Positions 41,687-61,355 of a stretch of DNA of 64,000 nt are shown one piece after another (the stretch's first letter is position 1; the number at the start of each line of letters is the position of its first letter). Location of the stretch: contig CAVQUB010000034.1 of assembly GCA_963716725.1 (NCBI GenBank), positions 96,001 to 160,000 on the forward strand. The letters run 5' to 3'. A model generated the notes under the pieces. It saw nothing but the letters and a program-made list of their open reading frames with translations. It was not told the DNA's origin and did not search any database. Position numbers and translations under genes: made by a program. The stretch is from an uncultured delta proteobacterium (GTDB lineage Bacteria > Myxococcota_A > Polyangia > Polyangiales > Polyangiaceae).

Positions 41687-42688
41687 GTGAGCGTCCGCCT
41701 GTGTGATAGCGTCCGCACCGTGCCGAGCGTGGACCGACAGACCGTCGTCGAAGCCCTGAACCACACGCTGGACCAGAGCGACTTCCCCACTCTCGGCGCC
41801 AAATACGAAGGCAAGGTCCGCGACAACTACTCGCGGGACGGCAAGCGCACGATCATCGTCACCGATCGCATCAGCGCCTTCGATCGAATCCTGGGCACCC
41901 TCCCCCTCAAGGGTCAGCTCTTGAATCACGTCGCCGCGTGGTGGTTCGACAAGACGGCCGATGTCGCGCCCAATCACGTGATCGCGGTGCCCGATCCCAA
42001 CGTGCTCATCGCCCACGAGTGCACGCCGCTCCCGGTAGAGATGGTGATGCGCGGCTACCTGACGGGCACCACCTCGACGAGCATCTGGGTGCACTACGAG
42101 AAGGGCGCGCGAACGTTCTGCGGTCACGCGCTCCCCGACGGCCTGAAGAAGCACCAGCGTTTGCCCGCCCCCCTCCTCACGCCGAGCACCAAGGCCGCGA
42201 AGGGCGGCCACGACGTCTCGGCGAGCCGCAGCGAAATCCTCGCGATCTCGGGCATGGCCCCGGCCGACTTCGACCAGGCCGCCGACATGGCCATGGCCCT
42301 CTTCGCCGCGGGCCAGCGCATCGCCGCCGACCGCGGCCTGATCCTGGTCGACACCAAATACGAGCTCGGCCGCACCCACGACGGGCGCATCGTGGTCATC
42401 GACGAGATCCACACCCCCGACTCGTCGCGCTACTGGAAAAGCGCCACCTACGACGCGCGCTTCGCGGCGGGCCAAGACCCCGAGAGCTTCGACAAGGAGT
42501 ACCTACGCCGCTGGCTCTCGGAGCGCGGCTTCACCGGCGACGGGCCGATTCCGGCAATACCGGATGAGATCCGGGTGGAGGCCACGCTGCGCTACATCGA
42601 AGCGATCGAAACGCTGACCGGTGAAGCGTTCGTGCCGAATACGGAAGAGCCGGTTGGGAGGATGCGGAGGAATCTGGGGATTGGGTGA
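41687..42688 (+). CDS. purC: SAICAR synthase
   Basis: GKVRD, TDRISAFD, KGQ.LN, TPSTK, LVDTKYE.G, DEIHTPDSSRYW, FDKE; true start may be slightly downstream. Confidence 0.96.
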   Translation: MSVRLCDSVRTVPSVDRQTVVEALNHTLDQSDFPTLGAKYEGKVRDNYSRDGKRTIIVTDRISAFDRILGTLPLKGQLLNHVAAWWFDKTADVAPNHVIAVPDPNVLIAHECTPLPVEMVMRGYLTGTTSTSIWVHYEKGARTFCGHALPDGLKKHQRLPAPLLTPSTKAAKGGHDVSASRSEILAISGMAPADFDQAADMAMALFAAGQRIAADRGLILVDTKYELGRTHDGRIVVIDEIHTPDSSRYWKSATYDARFAAGQDPESFDKEYLRRWLSERGFTGDGPIPAIPDEIRVEATLRYIEAIETLTGEAFVPNTEEPVGRMRRNLGIG

Positions 42689-42754
42689 GGGGCGGGCGGG
42701 GCTGACGGGTGGGGGATCCCCCCGGTCGAACACCCCGCTGTCTGGTTGGCGATT
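42632..42754 (+). repeat. purC 3' end plus downstream spacer (resident copy)
   Basis: 123 bp, 1 mismatch to 49004-49126; related copies at 47113 and 54530. Confidence 0.95.
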
Positions 42755-42908
42755 CGGGCGTGCTCCCGCGAACGCCGGAGATCATCGTGGCAGAGCGCGA
42801 GGCGCATCCGAGCGGGCGCGTGCCGAAGACAGTGAAGGCGCCCGTGACGCGCAACGTGCGGTGAAACTCGCCTGGCCGGCGTTCGGCGGGTGGAACGGCC
42901 AGTTATGC
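42740..42908 (-). other. attC-like site with degenerate distal core
   Basis: Minus strand starts GCATAAC; inner inverted repeat cgaacgccgg/ccggcgttcg; ends ACCAGAC instead of GTTRRRY. Confidence 0.7.
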
Positions 42909-42976
42909 CGTGGTGGAACACAGAGAGCCGGGTTGCGGAGGCCGTCGGCGCAGCAACCGTGTGCCATGGTCGTCGC

Positions 42977-43798
42977 TCACCGAGACGCAAGCGCCTTGAC
43001 GAGAGTCCAGCAGTCATCGAGGGCGTCGTGGTGCGCTGTGCCCGGTTGGTCATCGAGGGTCTGGCGCATCACGACGTGGCGAAGTCCCGCACGGACGCCC
43101 TCAACAACGAACCCGCCGCCTTCTGCGACGACGCAACTCGCCTCGTGACCACCGGGACCACATACCCTGACGTGGGAATGAACGTCTCTGCTGAAGTCGT
43201 CGAGTGGCGCGGCGTTCCAGAAACCGCGGTCCATGCAGGCGTCGATTCGAGTCCACGCGGTCAGAGGAGCAGACCAGCTGTCGACCGTGTGCGCAATGCC
43301 GAGCCCGTCTCGATCCTCGCAGGGGCCCCAGCGCTTGAGACGCGCGCGACAGAGCGACGCACGACGTTCCAGTGTAACGACGCTTCCAAAAGTTCCGCCA
43401 ACAAGGAATCGATACGCGGGCGCTCCCGACGAGTCTGGCAACGTGGCCTCACCGTGCAGGAGCAACTCGCCCGCGGCGAGGCGGAGCCATCGCGCACTCT
43501 GCAGGCGGGGAGAGAGGCCTGGAAAGAGTTCCGCGGTGGTTGCCGAGTCCGCCGGAGCCGGCGGCTGATCTACGGCAATCGGCTGGGTGGGGCAGCGGGG
43601 GAGGGCCATGCGTTCGCAGCCGGGCACTGTCGCCATGGTCAGGGCGGTCAGGGCCGCGGGAAGGCGGCGCGAAGCAGCGGTTGCGGCAAGCATCAGGTCG
43701 TCGCTGATCTCGCGCAGGCGTTTCCGGTGAGAAGACAGCGGGATAACGAATCGAAATTCAGCTGCGAAGGCAGCCTCAACTTCACTGGATGCTACCAC
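42977..43798 (-). CDS. Cassette hypothetical protein (possible lipoprotein)
   Basis: Only long ORF filling the space between two attC sites; real start must lie below 43741. Confidence 0.5.
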   Translation of the reverse strand: MVASSEVEAAFAAEFRFVIPLSSHRKRLREISDDLMLAATAASRRLPAALTALTMATVPGCERMALPRCPTQPIAVDQPPAPADSATTAELFPGLSPRLQSARWLRLAAGELLLHGEATLPDSSGAPAYRFLVGGTFGSVVTLERRASLCRARLKRWGPCEDRDGLGIAHTVDSWSAPLTAWTRIDACMDRGFWNAAPLDDFSRDVHSHVRVCGPGGHEASCVVAEGGGFVVEGVRAGLRHVVMRQTLDDQPGTAHHDALDDCWTLVKALASR

Positions 43799-43866
43799 TC
43801 CAGCAGCACACCTGGGGCGCTGCGGCTGGCGGGTCAGCCTTCGGCTGCTGAAATTTCCTGTTAGAC
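43741..43866 (-). other. attC site
   Basis: Plus GGATAAC...GTTAGAC; arms aaattcagc/gctgaaattt with one extra base and cgaaggc/gccttcg. Confidence 0.85.
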
Positions 43867-43875
43867 CGCACCCGA

Positions 43876-44667
43876 CTACGCAGCGAGCAGCGCTTCCAAG
43901 TTGGTTCGATCTGAGAACGGCTGAAGCGTGCTGTACTGCTCAATCCGTTTGAGATCCTCGTCACGATAGACACGGTTGATGTCAACGCTGTCGTCCAGCA
44001 AGGTCACTCGGCTCTCTGTCGCGCCACCGGCATTGAGATCGTGCCACTTCCGGAAGACTTCGTTCGCTTGCACATGACCCGAGGAGGTCATGCGAGAGAA
44101 GAGCGTTATGATCGCCGAACGGGTGGATTTTCCGGTAACCACGAAATCAACCGGAACGGGGCCGAACTGGCCGCTCAGTTGAATGGACGGCTCATACTGC
44201 AAACTCGCGTCCGAAAGGAACTCTTCGACGTCCTCGTTGAACGGGCTTTGGAGTTGAAGGCGCTTGGTGAAGAGCAGGTCTGACATTCTCACGCACGCCT
44301 GGCCCAGGAGGACGATCCCTTCCTGCAACGAATCGTCCGTGGGCGTAACCGGCAACTCGAGGGCACCGCCGCGGAGTGAAGCCCCGTAGAGATCGATTGC
44401 TTGTTCAAGCTGGGTTCGCCGCTTCTTTGAAGTCCACGGCTGGACGTCGTGGTCGAGGAGAAATGCCATGGTCTGGCCGAGGTCGCTCAGGCGCATCGGG
44501 GGCAGAAGCGGTGCGCTGGGCTCATCAACGACGAAGACGTCGACGGACGAACCGTCGGGATAGAGAAACCCAGTCTGGATCCGGATGTGCCCCTTGGGGA
44601 GCATGTCGACCTGCCTGACCATGCAGAGGTCAGCAATTGTCTTGGCGAGGGCTGGCGCGTTTTGCAT
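43876..44667 (-). CDS. DUF1828-like protein
   Basis: IQTGFLYPDGSSVDVFV..RLSDLGQT; C-terminal VDFVV nuclease-like segment. Confidence 0.7.
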   Translation of the reverse strand: MQNAPALAKTIADLCMVRQVDMLPKGHIRIQTGFLYPDGSSVDVFVVDEPSAPLLPPMRLSDLGQTMAFLLDHDVQPWTSKKRRTQLEQAIDLYGASLRGGALELPVTPTDDSLQEGIVLLGQACVRMSDLLFTKRLQLQSPFNEDVEEFLSDASLQYEPSIQLSGQFGPVPVDFVVTGKSTRSAIITLFSRMTSSGHVQANEVFRKWHDLNAGGATESRVTLLDDSVDINRVYRDEDLKRIEQYSTLQPFSDRTNLEALLAA

Positions 44668-44679
44668 GATCGAAGCTGA

Positions 44680-45105
44680 TCAAGGGACCTCGAAGGTCCC
44701 GTTGTGATTGATGTTTGCCGCAGCGCAGAAGTCCGCAAAGACGTCTTGAATGGTTTTGCCGGAGAGGTCCGCCCGCGTCTGTACGCCATCTCGAAGGTTC
44801 CTGGCGACACTGTGGTCGTCCTGAACAGAGTGTTTGTGGGAGCGCCCGGCAGATCCGTGGCAGGCCCCATCGACGTCGAGACGACAGATCGGTCCTTCGC
44901 CAATCAGAGTGACGTTGATCGTCTTGGCGCCAGTCTCGAGATTGTAGTTGACGTTCATGACGATGTTCACGCCGCTTGGGTTGGTGATGGGGATGCGCGA
45001 GGCGGTGAGCAGGGGGTGGGTAGCCGCCTTTTCGACGAGCTTTATGTCGACATCGATCGACTTGCCGGACAAGTCGCGCAGCGCACGGAAATCTGGGTTG
45101 TTCAC
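44680..45105 (-). CDS. Hypothetical protein (DUF6978-like)
   Basis: ICRLDVDGACH..SHKH; 12 bp upstream of DUF1828 gene; start uncertain. Confidence 0.6.
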   Translation of the reverse strand: MNNPDFRALRDLSGKSIDVDIKLVEKAATHPLLTASRIPITNPSGVNIVMNVNYNLETGAKTINVTLIGEGPICRLDVDGACHGSAGRSHKHSVQDDHSVARNLRDGVQTRADLSGKTIQDVFADFCAAANINHNGTFEVP

Positions 45106-45274
45106 GCTTCGGTGATCCCGAGCGTACCTGCTCGCCACACACTCGTCCATATTGCGCCAGGGCCGGATGAAGTGTGGACTTGGACAGGACGGCGTGCCCC
45201 CGCAGGCGCACGGAAGCAGGCGCAACGACCGGCGGCGCCTGGCTTCGCTTCGTCCACTGACCGCGTCCGCGGGG

Positions 45275-46273
45275 TCAAACGATCATACGCTTGGTTTCGC
45301 GGTCCCAAGAATCAATCACCCCCGCGTAGGGCAACCTAACGTCGTTGACATCCTCCAGCGCTAGCAAACGAACACAGTTCTTTCCACGTTCCTGCCTGGG
45401 CATCAGGCGCCCCAGCCCTTTCCATCCGGCGGACTGCAGGGTGTTGTTGCACGCGCGGCGGATCACAGACGCCAAAACGTCAACCATTTGAATGCCCGTT
45501 ACCCGGTGCGACGCGCAAAACTTCATGTCGCTCAAGAGAGCGTCAATGTCCACGTAGGTGAACGGTCCGTCCGGGCCAGAGACGCGCTCGCGAAGATGCT
45601 CAGGGGGCTCGGCTCTCTGGCCCATGTACCGCTGGAAGGCCGAGTAGTCAGCGCCCTTCATGCAAGCCAACGGGGTTGAGAGCGACTGGGTTTGTAACAG
45701 GGGGCCGACAATATCTTGCCAAAGCTGCTCGTGTCGCGTGGGAGTTACATCCTTTGCGTCGAGTCGCCAGCAGAATCTGCCAAGGGCCTTTGGAATCCTC
45801 TGGCTGTAGTAGAGAGTCGAAGCGGCAAGCACGGAATGCATCAAGGTCGTGAGCAGCACGGATTGGACATATAGTTGATCCGACAGGCTGCGCACTCGCG
45901 CCGCCAAACCTTCGAGTCGAGCTCGCACGGTTGATGCCATCGCGGGTGTCACGCTCGCGAGGATCTTTACGGCCTGCTCTTCCTTGTGGGACGAGATGCC
46001 TTGCCCGGTATGTATGCCCATGTCGATCACGGTCGCGATCAGAAGGATATCCAACCGCCGAATCGTGCGGATCACCTCCGCCATCTGCGCCTCCAAGAGT
46101 TGGCTTCCCTTGACCTCGCGGCCGCCGACTTTCCAGGGCTTGGTCACCCGGCGGAACTTCCGAAAGAGCGTTGTCGCTAGACTCTCGGGAACAACCAAGG
46201 CCGCGACGCAGGAGACCGCATTCGGTCTGGGCGGTATCTGAAAGGCACCTGCTTCGTCGATGAAGATGTACAT
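45275..46273 (-). CDS. DUF3800 family protein
   Basis: MYIFIDEAG, EVKGS, GIQMVDVLAS. Confidence 0.8.
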   Translation of the reverse strand: MYIFIDEAGAFQIPPRPNAVSCVAALVVPESLATTLFRKFRRVTKPWKVGGREVKGSQLLEAQMAEVIRTIRRLDILLIATVIDMGIHTGQGISSHKEEQAVKILASVTPAMASTVRARLEGLAARVRSLSDQLYVQSVLLTTLMHSVLAASTLYYSQRIPKALGRFCWRLDAKDVTPTRHEQLWQDIVGPLLQTQSLSTPLACMKGADYSAFQRYMGQRAEPPEHLRERVSGPDGPFTYVDIDALLSDMKFCASHRVTGIQMVDVLASVIRRACNNTLQSAGWKGLGRLMPRQERGKNCVRLLALEDVNDVRLPYAGVIDSWDRETKRMIV

Positions 46274-46364
46274 CGTCGATGCTGTCCTCACCTTGAGTCC
46301 GACCGAAGGTTCTCGGGAGCACCACGCGGCGATGAAGCAAGGGCGTTCATGTACGGTTCGGCCG

Positions 46365-47113
46365 GTCTAACTGGCGTTCTCCCTCGAACGCCGGTGGCAA
46401 TGTTAGCGGAAGACACCGCCGCGGGCACCAGCTCAGCGACCCAGCGCCTCCCGCACCCGAGCGAGCGCCTCCGGCAGCGCACGCTCGACCAGTTGCGCTT
46501 CCAGCCGAAGCACGCGGTAGCCGAGCGTCGTAAGCCTGCGGTCGCGCCGAGCATCCGCCGCGCCACGACCGCGGTGTGCGCTGCCGTCCACCTCGATGAT
46601 GAGCCGCCGGGCGGGCACCACGAAGTCGGCGATGAATTCCCCGACCACCACCTGGCGCCGCACCTCGACTCCGAGTTGGTGCGCGCGAAGCACGCGCCAC
46701 AGCGCGGCCTCCGAGGCCGTGGGCGCCGCGCGCATCGCTGCGGCGCGGGCGGCAAGGAGCTGTTGGCGGCGGAGCTGTTGGCGGTCGCGAGCGAGCATGG
46801 TTCCTCCGAGGCCCGGCGTGGTGGGCGGGCTTCGCGGCCCAGGGCGCACGATCTGTGACACGCCGCCCTTTGCGCTCGCTCGGAGGCGCCGGCTCTCGTG
46901 CTCAGTGCGTCGCGCCTGGTGAAAACGCGGCGTGGCGCAGAGCGTGCGCCGCTGAGCGGAGCCCGACCGCCGCGCCGGGCCGAGGCCCACCCGGCTCGCA
47001 TGCGTCACCTCACCGGGAGCGCGACAACCACGCGAACGCGTCCCCCTCAATCGCGCTGCGCGCGATTGGGGGGGGACCGCCGAGCGCAGCGAGGCGAGGG
47101 GGGGCAACCCGAG
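46365..47113 (-). mobile_element. DUF559/hairpin element copy 1 (complete)
   Basis: Half attC + DUF559 gene + leader + hairpin 47040-47077 + GGGGGGGCAACCCGAG; collinear with 48260-49004. Confidence 0.8.
46433..46798 (-). CDS. DUF559 (Vsr-like) endonuclease
   Basis: MR..PT.SE..LW, RRQ, IADF, IEVDG..H, D..RD..L...GYRVLR; GGAGG RBS. Confidence 0.92.
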   Translation of the reverse strand: MLARDRQQLRRQQLLAARAAAMRAAPTASEAALWRVLRAHQLGVEVRRQVVVGEFIADFVVPARRLIIEVDGSAHRGRGAADARRDRRLTTLGYRVLRLEAQLVERALPEALARVREALGR

Positions 47114-47172
47114 TGCCGAATACCGAGGAGCCGATCGCGCGGATGCGGAGGAATCTGGGGATTGGGGGGTGA
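47113..47172 (+). repeat. Orphan purC 3' end (VPNTEEPIARMRRNLGIGG*)
   Basis: In-frame variant of purC C-terminus VPNTEEPVGRMRRNLGIG*. Confidence 0.9.
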
Positions 47173-47492
47173 GGGGCGGGCGGGGGTGACGGTGCCCTGG
47201 CTCCGGTGGCTGGGGATCACATGGTCTCAACGGATTCCAGCAACCTGCCCTGGAAAGAGAGCGGTGCGGCGAGTTCGCCCGGCCGACGCGGCACGTGGCA
47301 CCGGCCGGGCAGAGGGCGGCACCGGATGAGCGGAAACTGACGAGCGGCCGCGAGGTCGACGCGGAGGGGACTTGCGTCGGTTGGGGGTGCGATTCGGCCG
47401 GCAGCGCGCAGACCGCTGCACCGACCAGGAACACGAGCAGCACAACGCATCTGACACCAGGGCTTTGGGCGTCTTGGGAATGTGTTCAGACC

Positions 47493-47583: not shown

Positions 47584-48204
47584 CTACTGGGATGAGAGTT
47601 CTTCTGCGTAGCGTCCAGCTGCGATCCTCCGCGCAGCGTGAGCGAGGTCACGGAGAAGATCGGCAAGCTCATCCCAGCTCAGTGAGGTCTTGGCGCAGTG
47701 GAGCCCGTCGTTGGCGAGCCAGAGAGCTTGTGGGTGACCTTCGGGAAGCTGCTCTGGAAGGTAGTGCTTGCTCAAATTGTACAGCTGATTGAGTCGACTT
47801 GCCGGACTCTCGTCGCTCTTCTCGAAGAGGCGCTGGCCCGTGACTCGCGCGCCCACATCGAGACCCTGGTAGAGCGTCGCCAAGGCATGCTCAAGGTGTG
47901 ACAACGCTTCGAAGTAGACACCAACTCCGCGGGACTTCGTCTTGTCTCCGCTCAAGTACTGGTTCACCGCGTCGACCCCCGCATCGTGCGCGAGTATGCT
48001 GCTACTGCTGCGCCTGATTACAGCGAAGGCGAGTTGCGTTCCCCTGGGGCTGCATGGCGCGCTGAAGACTGAATTGAGGACGAACTGCTGTAACCAGTGG
48101 GCGCCGTCCGCGAACTCGTCCCGGAGCGGCTTCGCCGAACAGGCGCCCAAGAGCGAGAGTTCCTGTGAAACGAAGGTATCGAGAGCAAAGTTGCTGAGCG
48201 GCAT
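47584..48204 (-). CDS. Cassette hypothetical protein
   Basis: 206 aa ORF filling the space between attC-like ends. Confidence 0.75.
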   Translation of the reverse strand: MPLSNFALDTFVSQELSLLGACSAKPLRDEFADGAHWLQQFVLNSVFSAPCSPRGTQLAFAVIRRSSSSILAHDAGVDAVNQYLSGDKTKSRGVGVYFEALSHLEHALATLYQGLDVGARVTGQRLFEKSDESPASRLNQLYNLSKHYLPEQLPEGHPQALWLANDGLHCAKTSLSWDELADLLRDLAHAARRIAAGRYAEELSSQ

Positions 48205-48241: not shown

Positions 48242-49004
48242 AGCTAACGATCGCCCTGGCTGGCGTTCTCCCTCGAACGCCGATGGCAATGATAGCGGAA
48301 GGCACGGCCGCGGGCACCAGCTCAGCGCCCCAGCGCCTCCCGCACCCGGGCGAGCGCCACCGGCAGCGCGCGCTCGACGAGCTCCGCTTCCAGCCGAAGC
48401 ACGCGATAGCCGAGCTTCGCGAGCTTGCGGTCCCGCCGAGCGTCAGCGGCGCGGTGTGCGCGGTGTGCGCTGCCGTCCACTTCGATCACGAGCCGCACGC
48501 AAGGCACGACGAAGTCCGCGATCAGCCCGCCGTTCACCACCTGGCGGCGCACTTCGACTCCGAGTTGGTGCGCGCGAAGCACGCGCCAGAGCGCGGCCTC
48601 CGAGGCCGTTGGCGCGACACGCATCGCGGCGGCGCGGGCGGCAAGGAGCTGTTGGCGGCGGAGCTGTTGGCGGTCGCGAGCGAGCATGGTTCCTCCGAGG
48701 CCCGGCGTGGTGGGCGGGCTTCGCAAGCCTTGGCGCACGATCTGTGACACGCCGCCCTTTGCGCTCGCTCGGAGGCGCCGGCTCTCGTGCTCAGTGCGTC
48801 GCGCCTGGTGAAGGCGCGGCGTGGCGCAGAGCGTGCGCCGGTTAAGCGCAGCCCGCCCGCCGCGTCGGGCCGAGGCCCACCCGGCTCGCATGCGTCACCT
48901 CACCGGGAGCGCGACAACCACGCGAACGCGTCCCCCCCAATCGCGCGCAGCGCGATTAAGGGGGGGACCGCCGAGCGCAGTGAGGCGAGGGGGGGCAACC
49001 CGAG
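48242..49004 (-). mobile_element. DUF559/hairpin element copy 2 (complete)
   Basis: Same layout as copy 1; hairpin 48930-48968. Confidence 0.8.
48322..48687 (-). CDS. DUF559 (Vsr-like) endonuclease
   Basis: 121 aa; 15 substitutions vs copy 1 by manual count. Confidence 0.92.
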   Translation of the reverse strand: MLARDRQQLRRQQLLAARAAAMRVAPTASEAALWRVLRAHQLGVEVRRQVVNGGLIADFVVPCVRLVIEVDGSAHRAHRAADARRDRKLAKLGYRVLRLEAELVERALPVALARVREALGR

Positions 49005-49126
49005 TGCCGAATACGGAAGAGCCGGTTGGGAGGATGCGGAGGAATCTGGGAATTGGGTGAGGGGCGGGCGGGGCTGACGGGTGGGGGATCCCCCCGGTCG
49101 AACACCCCGCTGTCTGGTTGGCGATT
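49004..49126 (+). repeat. Orphan purC 3' end plus spacer
   Basis: 122/123 identical to 42632-42754. Confidence 0.95.
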
Positions 49127-50381: not shown

Positions 50382-50432
50382 CGCTCTGCGAAGCGCCTCG
50401 ACCGACTGCACATGAGTTGTCAGAATCAACGG

Positions 50433-50612
50433 ATGATTGCCGAGACGGTCGTCCTTGTCGGTGCCGGCGTGGTGGCCAACGGCTGGGATCCAGTGATCGC
50501 CGCGCTGCGGCGCACGTACTTCCCCGACATGCGTTCGCCGGAGGCCGCCAATTTCGCGATGGCGCGGTTCGTGTACGCGGCCCGGCTGACGCGCCCTGGG
50601 GGCGCAACGTAG
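50433..50612 (+). pseudogene. N-terminal gene fragment, possibly SIR2-like
   Basis: MIAETVVLVGAGVVANGW; truncated against the IS4 remnant. Confidence 0.35.
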
Positions 50613-51297
50613 CGCGCACCGAGTTCCTGCGCCTTCGCCAGGACCTCGAAAATGTCCGCTTCGCGGTCCATCACGTGAATGAGCGCGCTGCCGGGGCAGC
50701 GTGCATGGACGGCCTCGAGCATGGCCGGCCAGCGCAGTGATTCGCGCTCGGGGTCTCTCCGACTGACAGACCGGCGGCGCCCGCGTCCACCCTTGTGTAC
50801 GAGGCGGACGTGTCGCTGTAGACCCAGAACTCCGAGTGGCACTCGCTCCTCGCCGGGAAGCACGGCCAGCGCCACGTGTGCGAGAAACCCCTGGCTGCCG
50901 CCGGACGTGACGCCCAACCCAGCTCGCCGACTGGCGCCGCCGAGTGATACTTCGGTCGTATCGTGCGCGACGATACACAGGCCAGCGGAACTCACACGCT
51001 CCACCGTCGCCGACAGGTGCGGGTCAAGGATCTGCTCCGCGTCGAACTGCTCGTTGCCCAGGAATCGGTAGACACCCCCAAGCTCGGACGGAGTGTCGAC
51101 AGCCTGCGGAAACCCAACACCGGGCGCCGCCATCAGTTTCTCAGCGAGCCAACCGAGCCTGTCACTGCGCCGCTTATCGCCGAGCTGAGAGCCCTCGAAC
51201 TCGTCCGAAATCGACCGCCCTAACCATTCTGTTGCCGGCATTTCTCCCGTAGATCACACGCGCCGTCCGCTCGCAATGAGATGTGTATGATCTTGAG
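50590..51297 (-). mobile_element. Truncated IS4-family (IS50/Tn5-like) element
   Basis: LGDKRR..RL, YRFL.N, HDTTE, ES.RW, VMDREAD then breaks; end AGATGTGTATGATCTTGAG (51279-51297) resembles the Tn5 end. Confidence 0.85.
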
Positions 51298-51846: not shown

Positions 51847-52194
51847 GTCGCGCTGTCCGGCGCATTCAAGGCGGAGCTCGACCTGTCCATCGGAGCAGTC
51901 GGCGATTGCAGACACGGCAGCGTGGCTCAGGACCAGATCCCCAAACGCGGGCAATTCCGCGGGCGTTGGGCACCAGGAGTTGGAAGCGTGTTCAAGCTCG
52001 AGGCCCCCGCATGTCCCGCCGGCAACGTGACCACGAGCGCGTTCACGAGACTCCCGCTTCAGCCGGCTCCGAATCTGTCCTGCCCCTGATCGGCCGAGGA
52101 CTTCTGGCCGGCGCGAGGCAGATCGACAACCGTCAGCATCCAAGTCACGCTGGCCCAGCTCCGAGCGTCTCACGACGGTTGGTTGGCCTGCGCC

Positions 52195-53148
52195 ATGCGA
52201 GCTTCCTCTTCCACTTTGAAATCCCAATGGATTGGCGCTCTGCGGCTAGACCCTGCGCAGCATCCGCAGGCACGGGCGCATCTGAGCGCTGCCAGTGGCT
52301 TGGTGCGATCGGGCCAGACGCTGTTTGTGTTGGCCGACGACGAGCTGCACCTGGGGTTGTTCGAAGACACCGTCGCCGCTGGCACGCCACCTGCGCCCGG
52401 AGGGTTGTTGCAGTTGCTGGATGGCGATTTGCCCGGAGACGCAGCGCAGCGCAAGAAGGCCAAACCAGACTTTGAAACGCTGGCCCACTTGCCAACCTTG
52501 CCCGGCTGTGGGGGCGGCGCGCTGCTGGCGTTGGGCTCGGGCTCCAAGCCCAACCGCGAGATGGCCGTGCTGCTGGCGCTGGCTGGTCCCGGTCAACTCA
52601 GTGGGCGCAAAGCCACGGTGTCTTTGTCTGCTTTGTATGCGCGGCTGCGCGAGCAGTTTTCCGATTTGAATATCGAGGGCGCGTGGGTGGACAGTGGCGA
52701 CCTGCATTTGCTGCAGCGGGGCAACAAGGGCGATGCGCGCAGCGCCTGCATCCGATACGACTGGGAGATGACTGCGCCCTGGCTGGCAGGTGCGCGAGCA
52801 CAGCCACCCGCCATCAAGAGCGTGCAGGTGCTGGACTTGGGGACCGTGGACGGGGTGCCGCTGAGCCTGACCGACGGTGTGCCGCTGCCGGGCGGTGACT
52901 GGCTGTTCAGCGCGGTGGCCGAAGACACTAGCGACAGCGTGGCAGACGGTGCCTGTGTGGCATCGGCATTGGGGGTGGTGGCCGCAGACGGCCAGCTGCG
53001 CCGCCTGACGAGTCTGCTGGGCGCGCCCAAGGTGGAGGGGATTGCGGTCCAGACCGAGGGTGATGACTGGCTGGTGACGATGGTGACCGACCCCGACGAC
53101 GCGGCCGTGGCCTCGCAACTCGCGGCCGTGCGCCTGTCCCGCATCTAG
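52195..53148 (+). CDS. DUF6929-like beta-propeller protein
   Basis: [39 protein letters not shown]. Confidence 0.75.
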
Positions 53149-53767: not shown

Positions 53768-53777
53768 TGGTGTTGCC

Positions 53778-53873
53778 GCCTAACGAGGCCGCTCAGCCGC
53801 GAGCGGCGCCACGAGTCTACCACCCTTGCGAGACGGGCGAACGCCGGTCGTCGGCTGCAGCGGCTTGTTAGAC
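53778..53873 (-). other. attC site (classical)
   Basis: Minus GTCTAACaagccgctgcagccg...cggctgagcggcctcGTTAGGC; one extrahelical base; upstream stop in core. Confidence 0.92.
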
Positions 53874-54185
53874 CGCTGTAGCCAACTCGAGAAAGCACGT
53901 ACGAAGTTCCTGCTCGACGGCCGGCGTCGGAACTCCAGCCGAGGCGAGGAAGTCAGCGAATAGAAGGAGCGTTCCGTAAAGATCTTCACCGTCAGTCGGG
54001 TACAGCGCGCAGATCACGGCGCGGACGGCAGCAGCGTGCGACGGATCTGAGGCGGCATCAACGAAATGCCAGCACGCAACGCGCGCGTTCACGACATCCG
54101 CTAGCGGTTGGGTTCCGTGGTGATAGTCCCGAATCACGAGCAGTGCGGTGCGAGCGGTCTCCGGCAGGCCCTCCTCAATAAGCCG
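53868..54185 (-). pseudogene. 5'-truncated cassette gene (immunity-protein-like)
   Basis: ARVACW..AVRAVICALYP; stop in attC; 5' end replaced by the element leader. Confidence 0.55.
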
Positions 54186-54530
54186 GTTTCTCCGAGGCCC
54201 GGCACCCCTTCGAGTGTCACGAAGCGCGTCGTGGTGGGCGGGCTTCGCGATCCCTGGCGCACGATCTGTGACGCGCCGCCCGTTGCGCTTCGCTCGGAGG
54301 CGCCGGCTCTCGAGCTCGGGACGTCGCGTCTCGCAGGCGCGCGGCGTGGCGCAGACCGTGCGCCGCCGAGCGGAGCCCGACCGCCACGCAGAGCCGAGGC
54401 CCACCCGGCTCGCGCACGTCACCTCAGCGGGAGCGCGGCGACCACGCGAACGCGCCCCCCCAATCGCGCGCAGCGCGATTAAGGGGGGGACCGCCGAGCG
54501 CAGTGAGGCGAGGGGGGGGGGCAACCCGAG
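54186..54530 (-). mobile_element. DUF559/hairpin element copy 4 (leader and hairpin only)
   Basis: Collinear with ~46800-47113; hairpin 54454-54491; nuclease gene absent. Confidence 0.8.
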
Positions 54531-54623
54531 CGGAGGAATTTGGGGATCGCGGGGTGAGAGGCGGGCGGGGGGAACGGGTGGGGGATCCCCCCGGTCGAAC
54601 ACCCCGCTGTCTGGTTGACGATT
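54530..54623 (+). repeat. Shorter orphan purC 3' end (RRNLGIAG*) plus spacer
   Basis: Matches ~42664-42754 with substitutions. Confidence 0.85.
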
Positions 54624-54778: not shown

Positions 54779-54783
54779 GGTAC

Positions 54784-56636: not shown

Positions 56637-56846
56637 ATGCGCACGTACACGGCAGTCGTGGAACGAGACGCCGACACCGGCTGGTACGTCGGCCACGTAC
56701 CGGGTTGGCCCGGTGCGCACTCGCAAGGCGCGACAGAGGACGAGCTCCGTCGGAATCTCGAGGAAGTCATCGCGATGCTCCTCGAGGATGGCGAGCCGAC
56801 GCTCGAGTCAGAGTTCGTGGGGACGCAGACAGTCCGGGTTGCGTAG
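56637..56846 (+). CDS. hicB: HicB antitoxin
   Basis: YTAVVERD..TG.YVG.VPG.PGAHSQG.T..EL..NL.EVI. Confidence 0.92.
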   Translation: MRTYTAVVERDADTGWYVGHVPGWPGAHSQGATEDELRRNLEEVIAMLLEDGEPTLESEFVGTQTVRVA

Positions 56847-56849
56847 GAC

Positions 56850-57074
56850 GTGGGTGACGTTCCCGTTCTGAAACCGCGCGAAGTGGTCGCGATCCTGGCT
56901 CATCTAGGCTTCGCTGAGGTGCGACAACGCGGCTCGCACAAGCAATTTCGCCACTCGGATGGGCGCGTCACGACAGTGCCGGTTCACACGGGTCGGGACA
57001 TCTCGCCAAGCCTGGTACGCCAGATCGCGCGCGACATTGGTATGGACGTGCGCGATTTCATCGCGCAGCGGTGA
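56850..57074 (+). CDS. hicA: HicA toxin
   Basis: LGF.EVRQRGSH.QFRH.DGR.TTVPVH. Confidence 0.93.
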   Translation: MGDVPVLKPREVVAILAHLGFAEVRQRGSHKQFRHSDGRVTTVPVHTGRDISPSLVRQIARDIGMDVRDFIAQR

Positions 57075-57093
57075 CGAGGGTCGCCGGGAGTCC

Positions 57094-57210
57094 GCCCAAC
57101 TGGCGTTCTCCCTCGAACGCCGGGCTCCCACATCCCCCGAGGCCACTCCGCTTCCGAGACCGCGCGCGACGCGCGAAAGAACTGACCATGCCGGCGCGGC
57201 CGCTGGCGGG
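57094..57210 (-). other. Partial attC (same arm as the element-associated half attC)
   Basis: Plus GCCCAACtggcgttctccctcgaacgccgg; opposite core missing. Confidence 0.6.
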
Positions 57211-58067: not shown

Positions 58068-58766
58068 TCACGCCGGCTCTTGCCGCGTCCACAGCCCGGT
58101 CCACTCGGGCACTCGCGCCCAGCCGCGCGCAAGCACTTTGGTTGCCAGTTCCGGTCCGAAGAAGAAGCCCAAGCAGCGGGCGGCGGACGCAGCATCGTCG
58201 AACGCGTAGTCCGTCGCGAACTGCCTCCGCTCGAAGCCCTGCTGCTCCAGCCAGGCGTAGTACTCGCCAAGGCGCTCGTTCGGCGGCGCTGCCGCTTCCT
58301 CTGCGGTGCCCAAAGTCTCAATCACCGCCAGCGTTCCTCCGGGAATCACCACGCGCCGCATCTCCGAGAGCGCTTGGGCGATGTGCGTCCTCCAGCCCGC
58401 TTCCTCCCAATAGCGGAAGTGCCCAAAGACCCAGCCGGCCACAGCGCCGTGCATGCTGTCGTTTTCGAACGGCAACGCGCGCCCGTCGCCGAGCGTGAGT
58501 TCGAGCTGGTGCGGGACGTACTCCGCGAGCTGGGTCCGAGCCACGTCCAACATAGCGGCTTCCGGCTCAAGGGCGACTACCTGTGCCCCCTGTTCCAGAA
58601 GCAAGCGGGAGACCCGGCCCGTGCCCGCGCCAACATCCAGCAGTCTGCCTGGCACGCTGCTGAAGATGTCGCACAGCGCATGCCTCAGGTTGTCGTCCGC
58701 GTCCTCTGCGGTCACCAGCTCGTGATAGCGGTCCGCGTGGTTCCGATAGACTTCACGAAACTCCAT
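58068..58766 (-). CDS. Class I SAM-dependent methyltransferase
   Basis: LDVGAGTG, GDGRALPF, R...PGG. Confidence 0.9.
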   Translation of the reverse strand: MEFREVYRNHADRYHELVTAEDADDNLRHALCDIFSSVPGRLLDVGAGTGRVSRLLLEQGAQVVALEPEAAMLDVARTQLAEYVPHQLELTLGDGRALPFENDSMHGAVAGWVFGHFRYWEEAGWRTHIAQALSEMRRVVIPGGTLAVIETLGTAEEAAAPPNERLGEYYAWLEQQGFERRQFATDYAFDDAASAARCLGFFFGPELATKVLARGWARVPEWTGLWTRQEPA

Positions 58767-59277: not shown

Positions 59278-59494
59278 CCGATCCCGCGCGAGCCCCCCGA
59301 ACGTCTTGCCGCTCAGCCGCAAGCACCAGCAGAGTCGACTCCACGAGACCGCCCCGGAGGGGGTCTCGTCGCTCGCGCGCGGGACCTAGACGACCATCTG
59401 TTCGCAGTGCACCTTCTATCGCGGTGTGAGGGCGGTGGTGGCGTCCACGCGGCGCCGAGGTTCGCAAGAACCGAGGCGCTAAGCCCCGCGCGCA

Positions 59495-59557
59495 GGGCGG
59501 AACGAACAGCAGCCAGTCGGAAAGCCCGCGGTCGTCTGCTGCAACGTCCTGTTAGGC
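59495..59557 (-). other. Partial attC
   Basis: Minus GCCTAACaggacgttgcagcagacg with upstream stop in core; distal end not recognisable. Confidence 0.55.
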
Positions 59558-60040
59558 ATCCTCGGCGCCTTCGTCGTAGATCCTTGAATAGTTACCGAAC
59601 TCGGTACCCTTCAAATCGGTGGCGACGACCTGTTCCGCGACGTCATAGTCGACGACGTAGCAGCACACTTCCATCGTGTCCGAGCCAATACTTCCACCGT
59701 CGCACATGCCGAGCCCCGTCCACCCCAACGTTTGGTCCATCCTGTCCTGCAATCGGTATCGCTTCTTCAAATCGGCAGCATCCCCGAATCCGTCGACGGT
59801 GTATTCAATCAAGAGGATCCGGTGGTCATCGAGTTCGATTGGTTGGTAACCATCACTCACGAAACGATCAATCTCCGCCTGGACCTTCGTCTCGACCTTG
59901 CGCAGCCCGGTCGACCTAACCGTCTTGGATTCGCCTTTCGCGCCCAGACTTCCCCAATGCACCGTGTGAGAACCGTCGTCGTTGTCCCACGTTTCCCAGT
60001 AGAGAATCTGGCTCGGGGTGCGCCTATAAAGCTTTAGCAC
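59552..60040 (-). CDS. Cassette hypothetical protein (WGR-like N-terminus)
   Basis: YWETW..HWG.LG..G; LGWTGLG.CDGG; stop in attC core. Confidence 0.8.
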   Translation of the reverse strand: MLKLYRRTPSQILYWETWDNDDGSHTVHWGSLGAKGESKTVRSTGLRKVETKVQAEIDRFVSDGYQPIELDDHRILLIEYTVDGFGDAADLKKRYRLQDRMDQTLGWTGLGMCDGGSIGSDTMEVCCYVVDYDVAEQVVATDLKGTEFGNYSRIYDEGAEDA

Positions 60041-60053
60041 CTGCTTGATGCCT

Positions 60054-60210
60054 GCCTAACTGGCGTTCTCCCTCGAACGCCGGTGGCAACGATAGCGGAA
60101 GACACGGCCGCGGGCACCAGCTCACCGGCCCAGCGCCGCCCGCACCCGCTCGAGCGCCACCGGCAGCGCGCGCTCGACGAGCGCAGTGAGGCGAGGGGGG
60201 GCAACCCGAG
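60054..60210 (-). mobile_element. DUF559/hairpin element copy 5 (internally deleted, both ends kept)
   Basis: Half attC + last codons of DUF559 fused at CGAGC (60178-60182) to the terminal gcagtgaggcgagggggggcaacccgag. Confidence 0.8.
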
Positions 60211-60251
60211 CGGAGCAGCTTGGTGATCGTGGGTGCTGAGGCAACAGCGAC

Positions 60252-60974
60252 TTACTCCGCGGGGTTGGAAGATCGGATTGCCTCCCACCCGAACGTCTTG
60301 GCCTGATGGACCCAGTCAAGCTCGGCAAGAACGGCTTGGCTGCCGAGCTCGCTTGCATGCTTCCACTGGTCCTCGGTCAGCGGGACGAGCTGCAGCAAAT
60401 TGAGCTCCATCGCGCCGTCGAGCTCGCCGGTAGTAGCCAGCAGATAGCGCTCGTCTTCTTTTCGCTTCTGCCGGTTTGGGAAGTCGAGCATCTCGGCGGG
60501 CTCGGTTGCCGGAACGATCACGAAGTGAAGCAAGTCATGAAACGCGGCGCCCCACAGATCGAATGCCTTGAACGCCAAATCGCCGGGGCCAGCTGTGGCG
60601 ACATCGTGAGCCAACATGAACAAGAACTCCGCGACTCGCGCGTCTCGCTTTGGCGAGTACGCGATCAGTTCGAGATGCGGCATCACGCCCTCAGCGCGTT
60701 GCGGGACGAAGGCGAGGCCCGCGCTGAGGTACGTCCAATACTCGCGGCCCTCGGACTGACCAAACTCCAACACGAGAAAGTCTGGCCGATTCGGCAACTC
60801 CATCCCGGGGTTCGGTTTCCACTCGTCCGTCGGGTCTCCCAAGAAGTCGATCACGTGAGATATCCAGCGAGCGCGGGCGCCCCATTGCGCGGAGAGCATC
60901 CAGTCCGGAACGCGCGCAGTCGCCGGTTCGGCGCCGACGGTTTGCTTTTTCTTCTTACGGAACCAGCCCAGCAT
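60252..60974 (-). CDS. Suppressor-of-fused (SUFU)-like immunity protein
   Basis: WTYLSAGL, LELIA, LLQLVPLTEDQW. Confidence 0.7.
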   Translation of the reverse strand: MLGWFRKKKKQTVGAEPATARVPDWMLSAQWGARARWISHVIDFLGDPTDEWKPNPGMELPNRPDFLVLEFGQSEGREYWTYLSAGLAFVPQRAEGVMPHLELIAYSPKRDARVAEFLFMLAHDVATAGPGDLAFKAFDLWGAAFHDLLHFVIVPATEPAEMLDFPNRQKRKEDERYLLATTGELDGAMELNLLQLVPLTEDQWKHASELGSQAVLAELDWVHQAKTFGWEAIRSSNPAE

Positions 60975-61127
60975 GCCTGGTACTCCCTCGTCCCCACGAG
61001 GTTACCGCATTCGCCTGCAAGGTTCCGAAGAGGCGCGGGGGCGCGGGGGCGCGGGCACGCGGGGCCACGCGTGCCGGCGACACGGTCGGAAGATGGAACG
61101 AAATGCTCGGACATGCGGGCCAGCCCG

Positions 61128-61355
61128 CAGCGCGGCCTCCGAAGCCGTGGGCGCCGCGCGCATCGAGGCGGTGCGGCCGCCAAGGACCTGTTGACGACGG
61201 AGCTGTTGATGGTCGCGAGCGAGCATGGTTCCTCCGAGGCCCGCCGGGCTCGCTCGGCCGCGACAACTCCACGCGAACGTGTCCCCCCCGATCGCGCGCA
61301 GCGCGATTGAGGGGGGGACCGCCGAGCGCAGCGAGGCGAGGGGGGGCAACCCGAG
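61128..61355 (-). mobile_element. DUF559/hairpin element copy 6 (5' 33 codons, shortened leader, hairpin)
   Basis: MLARDHQQLRRQQVLGGRTASMRAAPTASEAAL at 61226-61128; hairpin 61281-61319; same terminus. Confidence 0.8.

Follow-up and report, generated by a model that had tools for sequence, protein, structure and literature searches.

Islands that carry an integrase leave a duplication of the gene tail at gene 3' ends, and the nuclease Vsr nicks T:G mismatches. For the intrastrand triplex motif of the BoxC/PIT type, it is stated that E. coli loci bearing the motif are more rearranged among strains, polymerase arrest in vitro is cited, and the purine-type triplex is said to be unable to form in RNA (Holder 2015). 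No published description of elements that join a DUF559 gene to such a motif was found. Here, we analysed a stretch of 64,000 nucleotides (the window) from an uncultured delta proteobacterium of the Polyangiaceae. Downstream of purC, two systems are interleaved: a minus-strand array of attC cassettes, and a series of modules that are oriented convergently to purC. The module of about 0.75 kb occurs in six copies or remnants and consists of a DUF559 gene, a strand-specific folded domain of 178 nt (P-domain) and a hairpin followed by a mirror G-run (Table 1).

A repeat-family search of the window found the repeats where the initial annotation had placed them, and decay of the units indeed rises the further they lie from purC; their order along 42-62 kb is taken from one assembly. 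The terminus ...GGGGGGGCAACCCGAG is present at 47113, 49004, 54530, 60210 and 61355, with a variant at ~51777, and what had been called a half attC is a 30-nt attC arm (at 46365, 48254, 57094 and 60054) belonging to repeat family D10, three of whose seven copies lie within full attC sites. A DUF559 gene had been thought to close each unit: it is intact in two of the six, present as a fragment in two others (the 3' part at 60050-60181 and the 5' part at 61125-61246) and absent from those at 51.7k and 54.5k. The transposase remnant at 50426..51241 belongs to a multi-copy IS, since its Logan contig depth is 5-7x higher in three of four runs (X1, X3 and X5; it is lower in X6).

Table 1. Features of the purC downstream region, in window coordinates.
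Feature	Position	Strand	Evidence or remark
purC (SAICAR synthetase)	41687..42688	+	PF01259 217.7 bits
attC adjoining purC	42738..42915	-	model R1 163.7 bits, alignment A1; last box non-canonical GCCAACC
Block A (42977..46291), cassette ORF	42977-43798	-	ORF
Block A, attC	43735-43873	-	42.1 bits
Block A, DUF1828 gene	43876-44667	-	Pfam
Block A, ORF	44680-45225	-	ORF
Block A, gene with weak DUF3800 match	45275-46291	-	Pfam
Single attC arm just beyond stop codon of DUF559 no. 1	46365..46394	-	family D10
DUF559 gene no. 1, intact, 121 aa	46433..46798	-	PF04480 86.2 bits
P-domain no. 1, 47-pair fold	46809..46986	+	folds on strand antisense to DUF559
Triplex motif no. 1	47040..47113	+	one mutation in C-run; the one of 17 copies failing the exact 7-mer test
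Displaced purC tail B	47113..47192	+	open frame, encodes VPNTEEPIARMRRNLGIGG, then stop
Block B ORF	47584..48204	-	ORF list; no Pfam match
Single attC arm	48254..48283	-	family D10
DUF559 gene no. 2, intact, 121 aa	48322..48687	-	PF04480 79.6 bits
P-domain no. 2	48698..48876	+	alignment A3
Triplex motif no. 2	48930..49004	+	exact Y/R/RH 7-mers
purC tail C and native purC downstream spacer	49004..49109	+	99.2% over 123 nt
attC sites	49110-49270, 49660-49838, 50211-50388	-	attC model
Cassette ORFs	49258-49650, 49850-50230	-	no Pfam match
Transposase remnant, N-terminal DNA-binding domain only	50426..51241	-	PF14706 51.6 bits
Triplex motif no. 3, split by 27-nt IS-end remnant	51675..51777	+	no DUF559, no significant purC tail following
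DUF6910/DUF6929 gene	52183..53148	+	220 and 215 bits
Short attC	53772..53880	-	R1 37.9 bits
P-domain no. 3, no adjoining DUF559 gene	54222..54400	+	alignment A3
Triplex motif no. 4	54452..54530	+	
Displaced purC tail D and spacer	54530..54606	+	joint at purC -27
attC sites	54607-54785, 55362-55539, 56435-56613	-	attC model
ParE toxin; antitoxin	54784-55116; 55074-55361	-	Pfam
TIR-domain gene	55585-56364	-	Pfam
Inverted cassette	56637..57123	+	ORF 56637-56846, HicA toxin 56850-57074 (PF07927 73 bits)
Single attC arm closing inverted HicA cassette	57094-57123	+	family D10
SAM-dependent methyltransferase cassette gene	58068..58766	-	PF08241 62.9 bits
Weak attC	59422..59564	-	R1 16.7 bits, E 0.0045
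attC arm, then DUF559 3' fragment fused directly to last triplex-motif part	60050..60210	+	families D4, D13
SUFU-like gene	60252..60974	-	PF05076 29.3 bits
DUF559 5' fragment (61125-61246) and shortened leader	61125..61355	+	families D5, D11, D13
Triplex motif no. 6	61281-61355	+	exact 7-mer test

The hairpin and G-run are not new; they fit the published BoxC/PIT/TM triplex motif: a pyrimidine block, a purine block and a mirror G/T block follow each other as in its class II (Holder 2015). In copy no. 1, the order is C-run, hairpin, G-run, small hairpin and a mirror G-run that ends with CCCGAG. Exact Y/R/mirror-RH 7-mers are present in 16 of 17 copies, with seven covarying block variants, and the genome has 41 triplex sites at k = 8 as compared to none in the reversed-sequence control. 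All purC copies are joined to the 3' end of this motif, which is a fixed DNA end, whereas the partner points vary within the last 27-93 nt of purC: -93 in G001, -57 in the genome studied here (G000) and in G003, about -45 in G002, and -27 in G000 at 54530 and at C5:22827.

The working tail of purC, i. e. its last 57 nt (42632-42688), is repeated downstream. This tail is native coding sequence, because matches to purC in relatives extend to at least residue 328 in 26 of 28 cases (the other two end at residues 258 and 300). Of the six displaced tails initially proposed, three are significant when scored against 42590-42760: those at 49004-49126 (99.2% over 123 nt, E 3e-61), 54530-54623 (89.4% over 94 nt, E 5e-29; without the initial 32 tail nt) and 47113-47192 (87.5% over 80 nt, E 3e-21); the tails at 51772, 60210 and 61355, already called doubtful, have E > 1. 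Tail B differs from the working tail by four synonymous and two non-synonymous changes, and in all, 25 synonymous versus 8 non-synonymous differences separate displaced from working ends (binomial P = 5e-9, too optimistic a value given the small number of tail pairs and their common history). Since changes in a dead copy should fall on every codon position alike, this predominance of synonymous changes supports the idea that the displaced tails bear the mark of former working gene ends, from lineages that had diverged. When purC was compared with five relatives in a sliding scan, no clear mosaic 3' part emerged.

With a probability that we put slightly above even, the purC downstream region is shared by two mobile systems, and the gene end has repeatedly been replaced by incoming diverged DNA. 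The incoming string from a diverged relative would comprise the 3' part of purC, cassettes if any, DUF559, the P-domain and the triplex motif. It would recombine by homology within purC, and its other end would join illegitimately at the triplex-motif end, a joint of the homology-facilitated illegitimate type. purC would receive a new 3' end, the resident end would be displaced outward, and repetition would stack the units with the newest closest to purC. In addition, the tail repeats could recombine or undergo gene conversion with each other, and so multiply units, or make them more alike, in situ. It is tempting to speculate that the end is generated or exploited by DUF559, e. g. through nicking of the folded strand at T.G pairs.

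The assignment of the two intact genes to DUF559 was confirmed, their PF04480 scores exceeding the cut-off of 20.6 bits by far, and gene no. 1 matches PDB 3HRL (E 5e-11). DUF559 is a Vsr-like nuclease, and it is by analogy with Vsr that T.G nicking, and thus a role in unit formation, is proposed. Only 9 of the 41 or more triplex motifs in the genome have a DUF559 gene nearby; therefore, activity or breakage of the motif may not require the nuclease.

Among the alternatives, purely local instability survives best, even though we consider it rather unlikely. The motif would stall or dislodge DNA synthesis, and the nascent end would re-prime upstream within the convergent gene, or unequal crossing-over would occur, resulting in in-place tandem duplications of the segment bounded by the purC tail and the motif; IntI would reshuffle the cassettes, and neither outside DNA nor the nuclease would play a part. 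This fits well with the location of all joints at the motif 3' end and with the fusion of this same end to module-internal points as deletions: to the leader start at C13:85.9k and C12:66.6k, and inside DUF559 at 60181 of the window and at C13b. It is also in line with the rearranged E. coli loci and the polymerase arrest cited for the motif (Holder 2015). The 25:8 bias towards synonymous differences is hard to reconcile with dead copies, however. Moreover, the tandem DUF559 pair has diverged to the extent of genes from separate species (dS 0.33, dN 0.075) and both genes are still under selection (dN/dS 0.23; 0.16-0.23 for gene no. 1 against relatives), which supports the view that they diverged under selection. 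Between G000 and G003, DUF559 is closer (dS 0.36) than the adjacent purC (dS 0.80). For the 99.2% identical tail at 49004 and for 100% identical rpoC repeats in another genus, in-place duplication is at least as good an explanation as import. Given the 99% identity between the copy at 49004 and the working tail, at least one stacking step may be an in-place duplication or gene conversion.

The P-domain forms 47 pairs, and paired cells make up 97.3% on the plus strand as compared to 89.0% on the minus strand. Twelve pairs have changed on both sides, values that none of 500 shuffles reached, and 41 of the 47 pairs occur as at least two Watson-Crick pair types in the model-fitted alignment; several T.G pairs are retained. 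The domain was found upstream of DUF559 at 22 further sites in other genomes, and the antisense strand scored better at 21 of them. It might be argued that leader and hairpin are just a structured 5' region of DUF559 or an antisense RNA, that DUF559 is an ordinary cassette or repair gene and that the tails are debris of array turnover. The end of the P-domain only 2 nt from the DUF559 ribosome-binding site, its conservation upstream of DUF559 in several genera and the recurrence of DUF559 genes within attC arrays of the genus would suit this idea. We regard it as quite improbable: the fold is better antisense to the DUF559 mRNA (56 G.T versus 2 A.C cells on the plus strand), in at least six cases the tails are joined exactly at the motif end, and no Rfam family matches at E <= 0.1 (a GA-cis match at triplex motif no. 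2 is sub-threshold, with 23 bits versus a gathering score of 34.7). Finally, covariation in the adjoining motif is that of a purine-type triplex, which is described as impossible in RNA (Holder 2015).

The attC model has 10 matches on the minus strand of the window; genome-wide there are 31, with 8 on this contig (the 7 seed sites of the model and one more), 11 adjoining intI on C8 and 9 adjoining intI on C7. The cargo, i. e. ParE with its antitoxin, HicA, a TIR domain and a methyltransferase, is typical for cassettes. The statement that tyrosine and serine recombinases are absent holds for this contig, which has none of the 19 PF00589 matches of the genome, but two integron integrases are encoded elsewhere (C8:394170-395114, 444 bits; C7:157646-158215, 280 bits; cut-off 265); PF00239 has no match in the genome, which is 84% complete. 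Since the same attC family adjoins these two intI genes, the cassettes need no new mechanism, and a nuclease element that drives their acquisition, as originally envisaged, is dispensable. The array is a CALIN, integron cassettes without their own integrase, and cassette insertion is most likely the work of the IntI enzymes from C8 and C7.

It is very improbable that the units, too, are small islands at the purC 3' end, integrated by IntI or another tyrosine recombinase acting in trans on the hairpin/G-run as attachment site. The genome does encode candidate enzymes, the tail duplication resembles the trace of integrase-borne islands, and the module copy at C5:377k sits between the two arms of an attC. 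Yet purC is joined at differing positions, which argues against site-specific recombination: four joint positions within one gene leave no common core. Moreover, no GTT-type crossover box is present at the unit joints, the duplicated stretches vary in length, from 27 coding nt up to more than 100 nt that run through coding sequence and spacer, and the contig lacks a recombinase gene.

The module and its gene-end duplications also occur in other genomes. The module lies behind purC in five of seven genus members (G000, G001, G002, G003, and as a remnant in G005) and within 1.5 kb of purC at none of 13 loci from other genera; same-genus relatives carry one module with a second purC end, joined at other purC positions, and in G001 the second unit has a 93-nt purC tail. 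Gene-end duplications, whose lack at element copies elsewhere would have spoken against the initial interpretation, accompany further targets too, namely a gene at C13:81k and rpoC in G139, where the identical repeats span at least 102 nt. Among the fetched DUF559 loci, the downstream flank is repeated upstream, beyond the DUF559 unit, at 14 of 33 triplex-motif sites, the rpoC site being one of them. G002 has units of ~800 nt with ~99% identity at four loci, one of which is an empty site in five other genus members (G000, G001, G003, G004 and G005); this insertion is a 1.4-kb composite, in which a further small gene and heptamer inverted repeats are present, rather than a clean module insertion. 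That the assembler strung strain variants of one locus together deserves hardly any credence: although the assembly is of the metagenome type (35 contigs, 84% complete, 3.9% contamination) and Logan contigs span no whole unit among the matches listed, the units differ by ~10% and hold different unique cassettes, coverage in four runs from three studies extends to each of the 30 bins between 42.2 and 62.1 kb, with 0 differences in the unique pieces, G001 has the same multi-unit layout, and the better assemblies G002 and G003 show the single-unit form with two tails.

Thus, of the initial interpretation, the joints without a local recombinase or fixed crossover and the tails as former working ends stand, and the need for a nuclease to bring in cassettes does not. 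With repeated replacement of the purC end as the favoured explanation, at slightly better than even odds, the locus resembles a fossil record of successive DNA captures with no integrase nearby.

The favoured reading of our data is that the end of purC may have been replaced repeatedly, leaving former gene ends displaced downstream. The tail in question is native coding sequence, as 26 of the 28 purC matches in relatives reach residue 328 or beyond (the remaining two stop early, at residues 258 and 300). When the region downstream of purC was scored against the true purC end and its downstream spacer, three copies were detected, and no significant match followed the termini at 51777, 60210 and 61355. 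Thus, the purC tails that the initial annotation had claimed at 47113, 49004 and 54530 all proved significant on alignment to the working gene end, those it had suggested as decayed or doubtful at ~51772, 60210 and 61355 did not, and the repeat families it had described were recovered at their coordinates by a repeat finder. It had also described each unit, i. e. each stretch closed by a module and a purC tail, as ending with a DUF559 gene: this is true of two units with intact genes and, in the form of fragments, of two more, and DUF559 is absent from the units that end at 51.7k and 54.5k. The module itself is about 0.75 kb long and consists of the DUF559 gene, a folded P-domain and a triplex motif that forms the terminus.

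Coordinates of the features discussed (window coordinates unless a contig of the source genome is named)
Feature	Position	Strand	Description
purC	41687-42688		PF01259; gene end at 42688
purC tail copy	47113-47192		87.5% identity, 80 nt
purC tail copy	49004-49126		99.2% identity, 123 nt
purC tail copy	54530-54623		89.4% identity, 94 nt; begins 32 nt deeper into the tail
Intact DUF559 gene	46433-46798	minus	
Intact DUF559 gene	48322-48687	minus	
DUF559 fragment	60050-60181		
DUF559 fragment	61125-61246		
Rfam GA-cis match	48926-49004		sub-threshold: 23 bits against 34.7
Transposase remnant	50426-51241		PF14706
Inverted IS/MITE end	51306-51330		GGGACTTCCAAGGGTCG type
Inverted IS/MITE end	51740-51765		GGGACTTCCAAGGGTCG type
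Internal tex piece	53196-53305		97% identity to 63210-63319 over 110 nt
intI, full length	C8:394170-395114		TIGR02249, 444 bits (cut-off 265)
intI with attC array	C8:385315-395114		
intI, second match	C7:157646-158215		280 bits
intI with attC array	C7:149677-158215		
Module in attC (L040)	C5:376840-377559		complete module and decayed tail-like stretch between two arms of one attC
Stray joint fragment (L044)	C5:22762-22900		last ~95 nt of a module plus 53 nt of purC tail/spacer, -27 joint type
Debris past window end (L046)	C34:160007-160506		weak attC (37.8 bits) and three short DUF559/leader fragments

The differences between working and displaced tails are of the coding type: in five pairs from four genomes, 25 changes are synonymous and eight non-synonymous (binomial P = 5e-9, with synonymous sites making up 26% of sites and the pairs not being fully independent), and the pair of the same-genus relative G001 has seven synonymous changes and none of the other kind. 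All displaced tails have kept the open frame and the stop codon, and the tail at 47113 encodes residues that are also present in the working purC genes of relatives. Between the two tandem DUF559 genes, dS is 0.33 (dN/dS 0.23), which is close to the smallest between-species purC dS in the genus (0.34) and below the others (up to 0.85), and between the source genome and its relative G003 the dS is 0.36 for DUF559 and 0.80 for the neighbouring purC. Dead copies that drift in place would hardly account for this divergence of tails and DUF559 genes. The divergence would fit the idea that the displaced tails are former working gene ends from diverged lineages, and that modules have moved between these lineages. 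The coding-type divergence thus points to import rather than to simple duplication. Three observations speak against a history of import alone, however: the tail at 49004 has almost the same sequence as the working one, the rpoC repeats of G139, a genome of a different genus, are identical, and a sliding identity comparison of purC with five relatives revealed no clear mosaic 3' part.

The joints between motif and gene end are found at four positions in purC: -93 in G001, -57 in the source genome and G003, about -45 in the relative G002, and -27 at 54530 of the source genome and in a stray copy at C5:22827. One fixed end combined with a variable partner argues against site-specific recombination. 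The absence of a tyrosine or serine recombinase from the locus, as stated in the initial annotation, was upheld: none of the 19 PF00589 matches of the genome and no TIGR02249 match lies on C34, the contig of which the window is positions 96001-160000, and no serine recombinase was found in the genome (84% complete). An island that enters the 3' end of a gene by means of its own integrase would explain the repeated gene end; the four joint positions provide no single fixed crossover core in purC, and no integrase is present on the contig or, as far as the sequence examined extends, next to the single units in G002 and G003. A crossover of the IntI type was rejected for the unit joints, which have no GTT box and vary in position. 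The stray fragment around C5:22827 sits between an HNH_2 gene and a gene for an MqsA-like antitoxin, and its presence on another contig means that a joint fragment has moved or been copied elsewhere.

According to the favoured reading, the replacement of the gene end, incoming DNA would be anchored in purC by homology, and its other end, set by the triplex motif, would join illegitimately inside the last 27-93 nt of the gene. Recombination between tails may then multiply or homogenise the units. The participation of DUF559 in the joints is suggested by association only, i. e. by the fact that gene, P-domain and motif go together and that the gene is under selection (dN/dS 0.16-0.23). This purifying selection indicates that the protein is in use, and nothing beyond that.

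Cassettes have probably been added to the same locus in a different manner. Seven repeats of about 165 nt align as attC sites in minus-strand reading: the first box is GCATAAC, GTCTAAC or GCCTAAC and often contains the stop codon of the preceding ORF, the last box resembles GTTATAC or GTTAGAC, and the stem has about 21 pairs (18-22, read by eye). The attC calls rest on R1, our own covariance model built from these seven window sites. It reports 10 sites in the window, all on the minus strand, and 31 matches in the genome: eight on the contig of the window (the seven seed sites and one more), 11 directly adjoining the full-length intI on contig C8, nine adjoining the second intI match on contig C7, and three lone sites elsewhere. 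The window cassettes are an integron array without an integrase (CALIN); this term and that of the sedentary chromosomal integron, with their definition, reportedly go back to Cury et al. 2016. The window cassettes carry typical cargo, namely ParE together with an antitoxin, HicA, a TIR-domain protein, a methyltransferase, DUF1828, a weak match to DUF3800, a SUFU-like protein and unknown ORFs. As in other CALINs, the sites combine RYYYAAC and GTTRRRY boxes with a stem that is long and imperfect, the short cassettes are co-oriented with stop codons within the first box and toxin-antitoxin cargo, and the attC family also adjoins intI elsewhere in the genome. Since this family is common to the intI-linked arrays, distant integrases explain the cassette junctions. 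The possibility considered in the initial annotation that a distant integrase accounts for all junctions therefore holds for the cassettes and does not cover the unit joints. Indeed, unlike a CALIN, the array is interrupted by joints of a non-attC kind, at which the end of the adjacent housekeeping gene is repeated, and one resident kind, the DUF559 module, lies between split attC arms. The 30-nt arm beside DUF559 was rejected as a complete short attC, as what would be its first box is not conserved among the four copies and R1 gives no match.

The integron arrays of the source genome have features of their own. On both C8 and C7, intI and attC are co-stranded with the array 3' of intI, which we take to be the 'inverted integrase' layout as opposed to the usual divergent one. 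The other side of the C8 intI (395.2-400.5k) contains tightly packed genes and no attC matches, followed by a triplex motif at 400559. The module on contig C5 (L040) looks as if it were nested in an attC loop or had turned into a cassette. With the fragments past the window end, which itself falls within the tex ORF, tex appears to have debris of the array type on either side. In G002, there appears to be a very long attC array near the start of contig C2 (C2:1-160000, loci L081-L085 and L109), in which a DUF559 subfamily with about 61% identity to the window protein occurs at no fewer than five places with near-identical scores.

The terminus consists of a C-run, an inner palindrome, a complementary G-run, a small GC hairpin and, last, a second G/T-run. 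When nine module copies were aligned from the DUF559 start codon to the terminus, this last run resembled a mirror image of the purine run rather than its complement. Exact pyrimidine, purine and mirror 7-mers are present in 16 of 17 motif copies and fall into seven variants, such as GGGAAGA with AGTTGGG or AGATGGG, GGAGGGA with AGGGTGG, and GAGGGGA with AGGGGAG; across the variants, an A of the purine block corresponds to A or T in the mirror block. At 8 nt, there are 41 such sites in the genome and none in a reversed-sequence control. By its block layout, the terminus is an intrastrand triplex motif of the BoxC/PIT/TM type, class II, and triplex formation is predicted from the sequence. In an Rfam scan of 42000-62500 (E <= 1), neither the P-domain nor the triplex motif was matched; the GA-cis match, the sole result, was sub-threshold, and no family was therefore assigned. 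As far as the available parts of the source go, BoxC/PIT/TM elements share with the window motif the order of pyrimidine, purine and reverse-Hoogsteen mirror blocks, and they are likewise G/C-rich, multi-copy, intergenic and tied to rearranged loci (Holder et al. 2015, PMC4666352). According to the same work, triplexes of the purine-motif kind are unable to form in RNA; it also cites in vitro arrest of polymerase and reports more rearrangement of motif-bearing loci among E. coli strains. There, however, the elements are orphan repeats, and the words 'endonuclease' and 'duplication' are absent from the text as available, whereas the window motif terminates a gene-bearing module on one side, and the joints lie exactly there. 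A DUF559 gene is nearby for only nine of the at least 41 motifs of the genome.

The P-domain, 178 nt between the DUF559 start codon and the motif, folds with 47 pairs; the share of paired cells in 14 copies is 97.3% on the plus strand and 89.0% on the minus strand. Both sides have changed in 12 pairs. None of 500 shuffles reached any of the observed measures, a test in which independence is overstated because the copies are related, and slid controls gave 28-49% paired. Moreover, the fold is strand-specific, with 56 G.T and 2 A.C cells. This asymmetry and the difference in pairing indicate that folding takes place on the strand antisense to DUF559, on which the triplex motif also has its Y-R-RH reading and which, by integron convention, is that of the attC bottom strands. 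A model of the domain matched upstream of DUF559 at another 22 sites, which lie in other genomes and genera, and antisense was the better-scoring strand at 21 of them (a comparison of two match lists that left out six short matches of ~60 nt in the genome G120). In the model-fitted alignment of 20 distinct rows, 92.7% of cells are paired, G.T outnumber A.C cells by 50 to 10, and 41 of the 47 pairs show two or more Watson-Crick types. The conservation of T.G pairs in a fold adjoining a Vsr-like gene suggests that the P-domain is a candidate substrate.

The DUF559 proteins of the window belong to PF04480 (86.2 and 79.6 bits, cut-off 20.6, covering profile positions 4-106 and 4-99 of 109), a family with a Vsr-like PD-(D/E)XK fold, and are predicted to be nucleases. 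The module is multi-copy, with nine DUF559 matches in the source genome, 27 in G002 and 14 in G001. The arrangement at purC recurs in relatives: in G002 and G003, both of the same genus, purC is directly followed by one module and then a second purC tail, with no cassettes. In G001, an attC array separates purC from a DUF559 gene that lies at the contig end, and a second contig carries DUF559, P-domain, motif, a 93-nt purC tail and then attC. In G004, attC sites extend from purC to the contig end, and G005 retains a DUF559 remnant. No DUF559 was found within 1.5 kb of purC in G006 or at 13 loci of other genera. Other genes are affected as well: at C13:81k of the source genome, the motif end is followed by a repeat of an unnamed gene's 3' end with spacer (93%, 102 nt), and in G139 by the last 51 nt of rpoC with spacer, at 100% identity over at least 102 nt. 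The downstream flank was repeated upstream, beyond the DUF559 unit, at 14 of 33 motif sites among the fetched DUF559 loci, several of them tandem arrays.

In G002, units of ~800 nt with ~99% identity occupy four loci, one of which is empty in the source genome, G001, G003, G004 and G005. The insertion there, 1.4 kb long, is a composite that includes a second small gene and inverted heptamer repeats; when the DNA was judged by eye, this small ORF looked like a gene of the GxxExxY type with a nuclease fold. Heptamers (GCCACGA/GCAACGA, three to four times, then GAA repeats) lie on the 3' side of DUF559 at one G002 locus (L079, C1:1341964) and at purC (L029), and the arrays recur inverted at the far end of the 1.4-kb insertion. 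In the window, the internal tex piece lies just past the DUF6910 gene within the array, about 10 kb upstream of tex, and Logan contigs from the true tex gene extend beyond 53305 as loose ends. The GGGACTTCCAAGGGTCG-type ends, also found at C13:85.3-86.6k and C1:173.7k, lie in or beside triplex motifs or P-domains, near the transposase remnant.

Logan contigs from four runs of three studies cover all 30 bins of 42.2-62.1 kb, with 0 differences in unique cassette pieces; no RNA run was among the runs listed as containing the sequence. They are short unitigs that cannot order units, the joints lying in repeats and the sides being <35-45 nt, and none of those listed bridges a whole unit. Support for the order of the units thus comes from a single assembly, from the ~10% divergence between units, and from the similar arrangements in G001, G002 and G003.

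Among known systems, restriction-modification (RM) gene units are close in outcome: the accessible sections of Furuta et al. 2010 (PMC2853133, citing Nobusato 2000) describe insertion accompanied by a long duplication of the target and followed by amplification via the repeats, and propose a virus-like cycle of invasion, amplification and release. Both are nuclease-encoding units without transposase or integrase that multiply in tandem and are flanked by long, variable direct target repeats, often over the 3' end of a gene (PMC2853133). Indeed, the duplications are of the RM type, i. e. longer than 30 bp, variable and with no other mobility gene: they measure ~80 to >120 nt at purC, and no less than 102 nt at rpoC and C13:81k. 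However, the module contains DUF559 only and no methyltransferase partner, every joint is carried by a defined folded end, the repeats have diverged in a coding pattern, and the units are stacked with integron cassettes in between; these features set it apart from the RM units as described (PMC2853133). Homology-facilitated illegitimate recombination during natural transformation (de Vries and Wackernagel 2002, cited in PMC6382021) likewise combines a homologous anchor with an illegitimate joint at a few shared bases to give a replaced gene end and a non-homologous joint. By the account available in PMC6382021, it differs in that the illegitimate end at the window is always the same sequence and that the outcome is a target duplication.

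The published accounts that we could consult, listings and abstracts with subscription journals outside their coverage, reported neither DUF559 mobility nor a link between DUF559 and a triplex motif. REP/RAYT systems pair a small nuclease gene with its own dispersed hairpin repeats. In the Ssn/NTS system, an enzyme cuts single-stranded DNA at a motif and modulates transformation (Chenal et al. 2025, PMC11893778, as far as accessible). With both, the module shares the linkage of a small nuclease gene to a multi-copy folded DNA motif; in contrast to their GIY-YIG or HUH folds, that of DUF559 is Vsr-like PD-(D/E)XK, and its cleavage activity is predicted. Homing endonucleases of the Vsr-like EDxHD family, e. 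g. I-Bth0305I, were also considered; a PDB sequence search with DUF559 (E <= 1) returned 3HRL ('endonuclease-like protein', E 5e-11) as its sole match and no intron or intein endonuclease entry.

It is tempting to speculate, although we consider it rather unlikely, that DUF559 is a Vsr-type nickase acting on its own upstream DNA, that the module is an integrase-free 'gene-end ratchet', and that DUF559 is the missing enzyme of the orphan BoxC/triplex repeats. When single-stranded, the plus strand would fold into the triplex end and the P-domain hairpin, whose T.G pairs are conserved. The resulting defined end would let the module, with the DNA up to the converging gene, enter a new genome through a homologous anchor in an essential gene on one side and a joint at the motif end on the other. 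In this way, dated stacks of displaced gene ends would build up, and integron cassettes would be given a landing pad.

The triplex motif, integrase-less integron arrays and insertion with long target duplication are already known. We did not find in print a DUF559 module with the triplex motif as its active end, the P-domain, or stacked gene ends with coding divergence. The window adds a dated stack at one gene, a side-by-side comparison with integron junctions and a strand-specific domain. The locus is unusually informative since an essential gene has left a row of three or more dated, displaced ends here, ends that would have been working when they diverged. Moreover, with the module beside a classical integron array, two routes of gene gain can be separated at single joints, and the strand-specific fold with T.G pairs beside a Vsr-like gene offers a concrete candidate substrate. 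To our knowledge, the BoxC/PIT triplex repeats, known since the 1990s, have no partner protein. If our reading is true, DUF559, a very common domain with no assigned function, the BoxC/PIT repeats and insertion with long target duplication would become one testable system.
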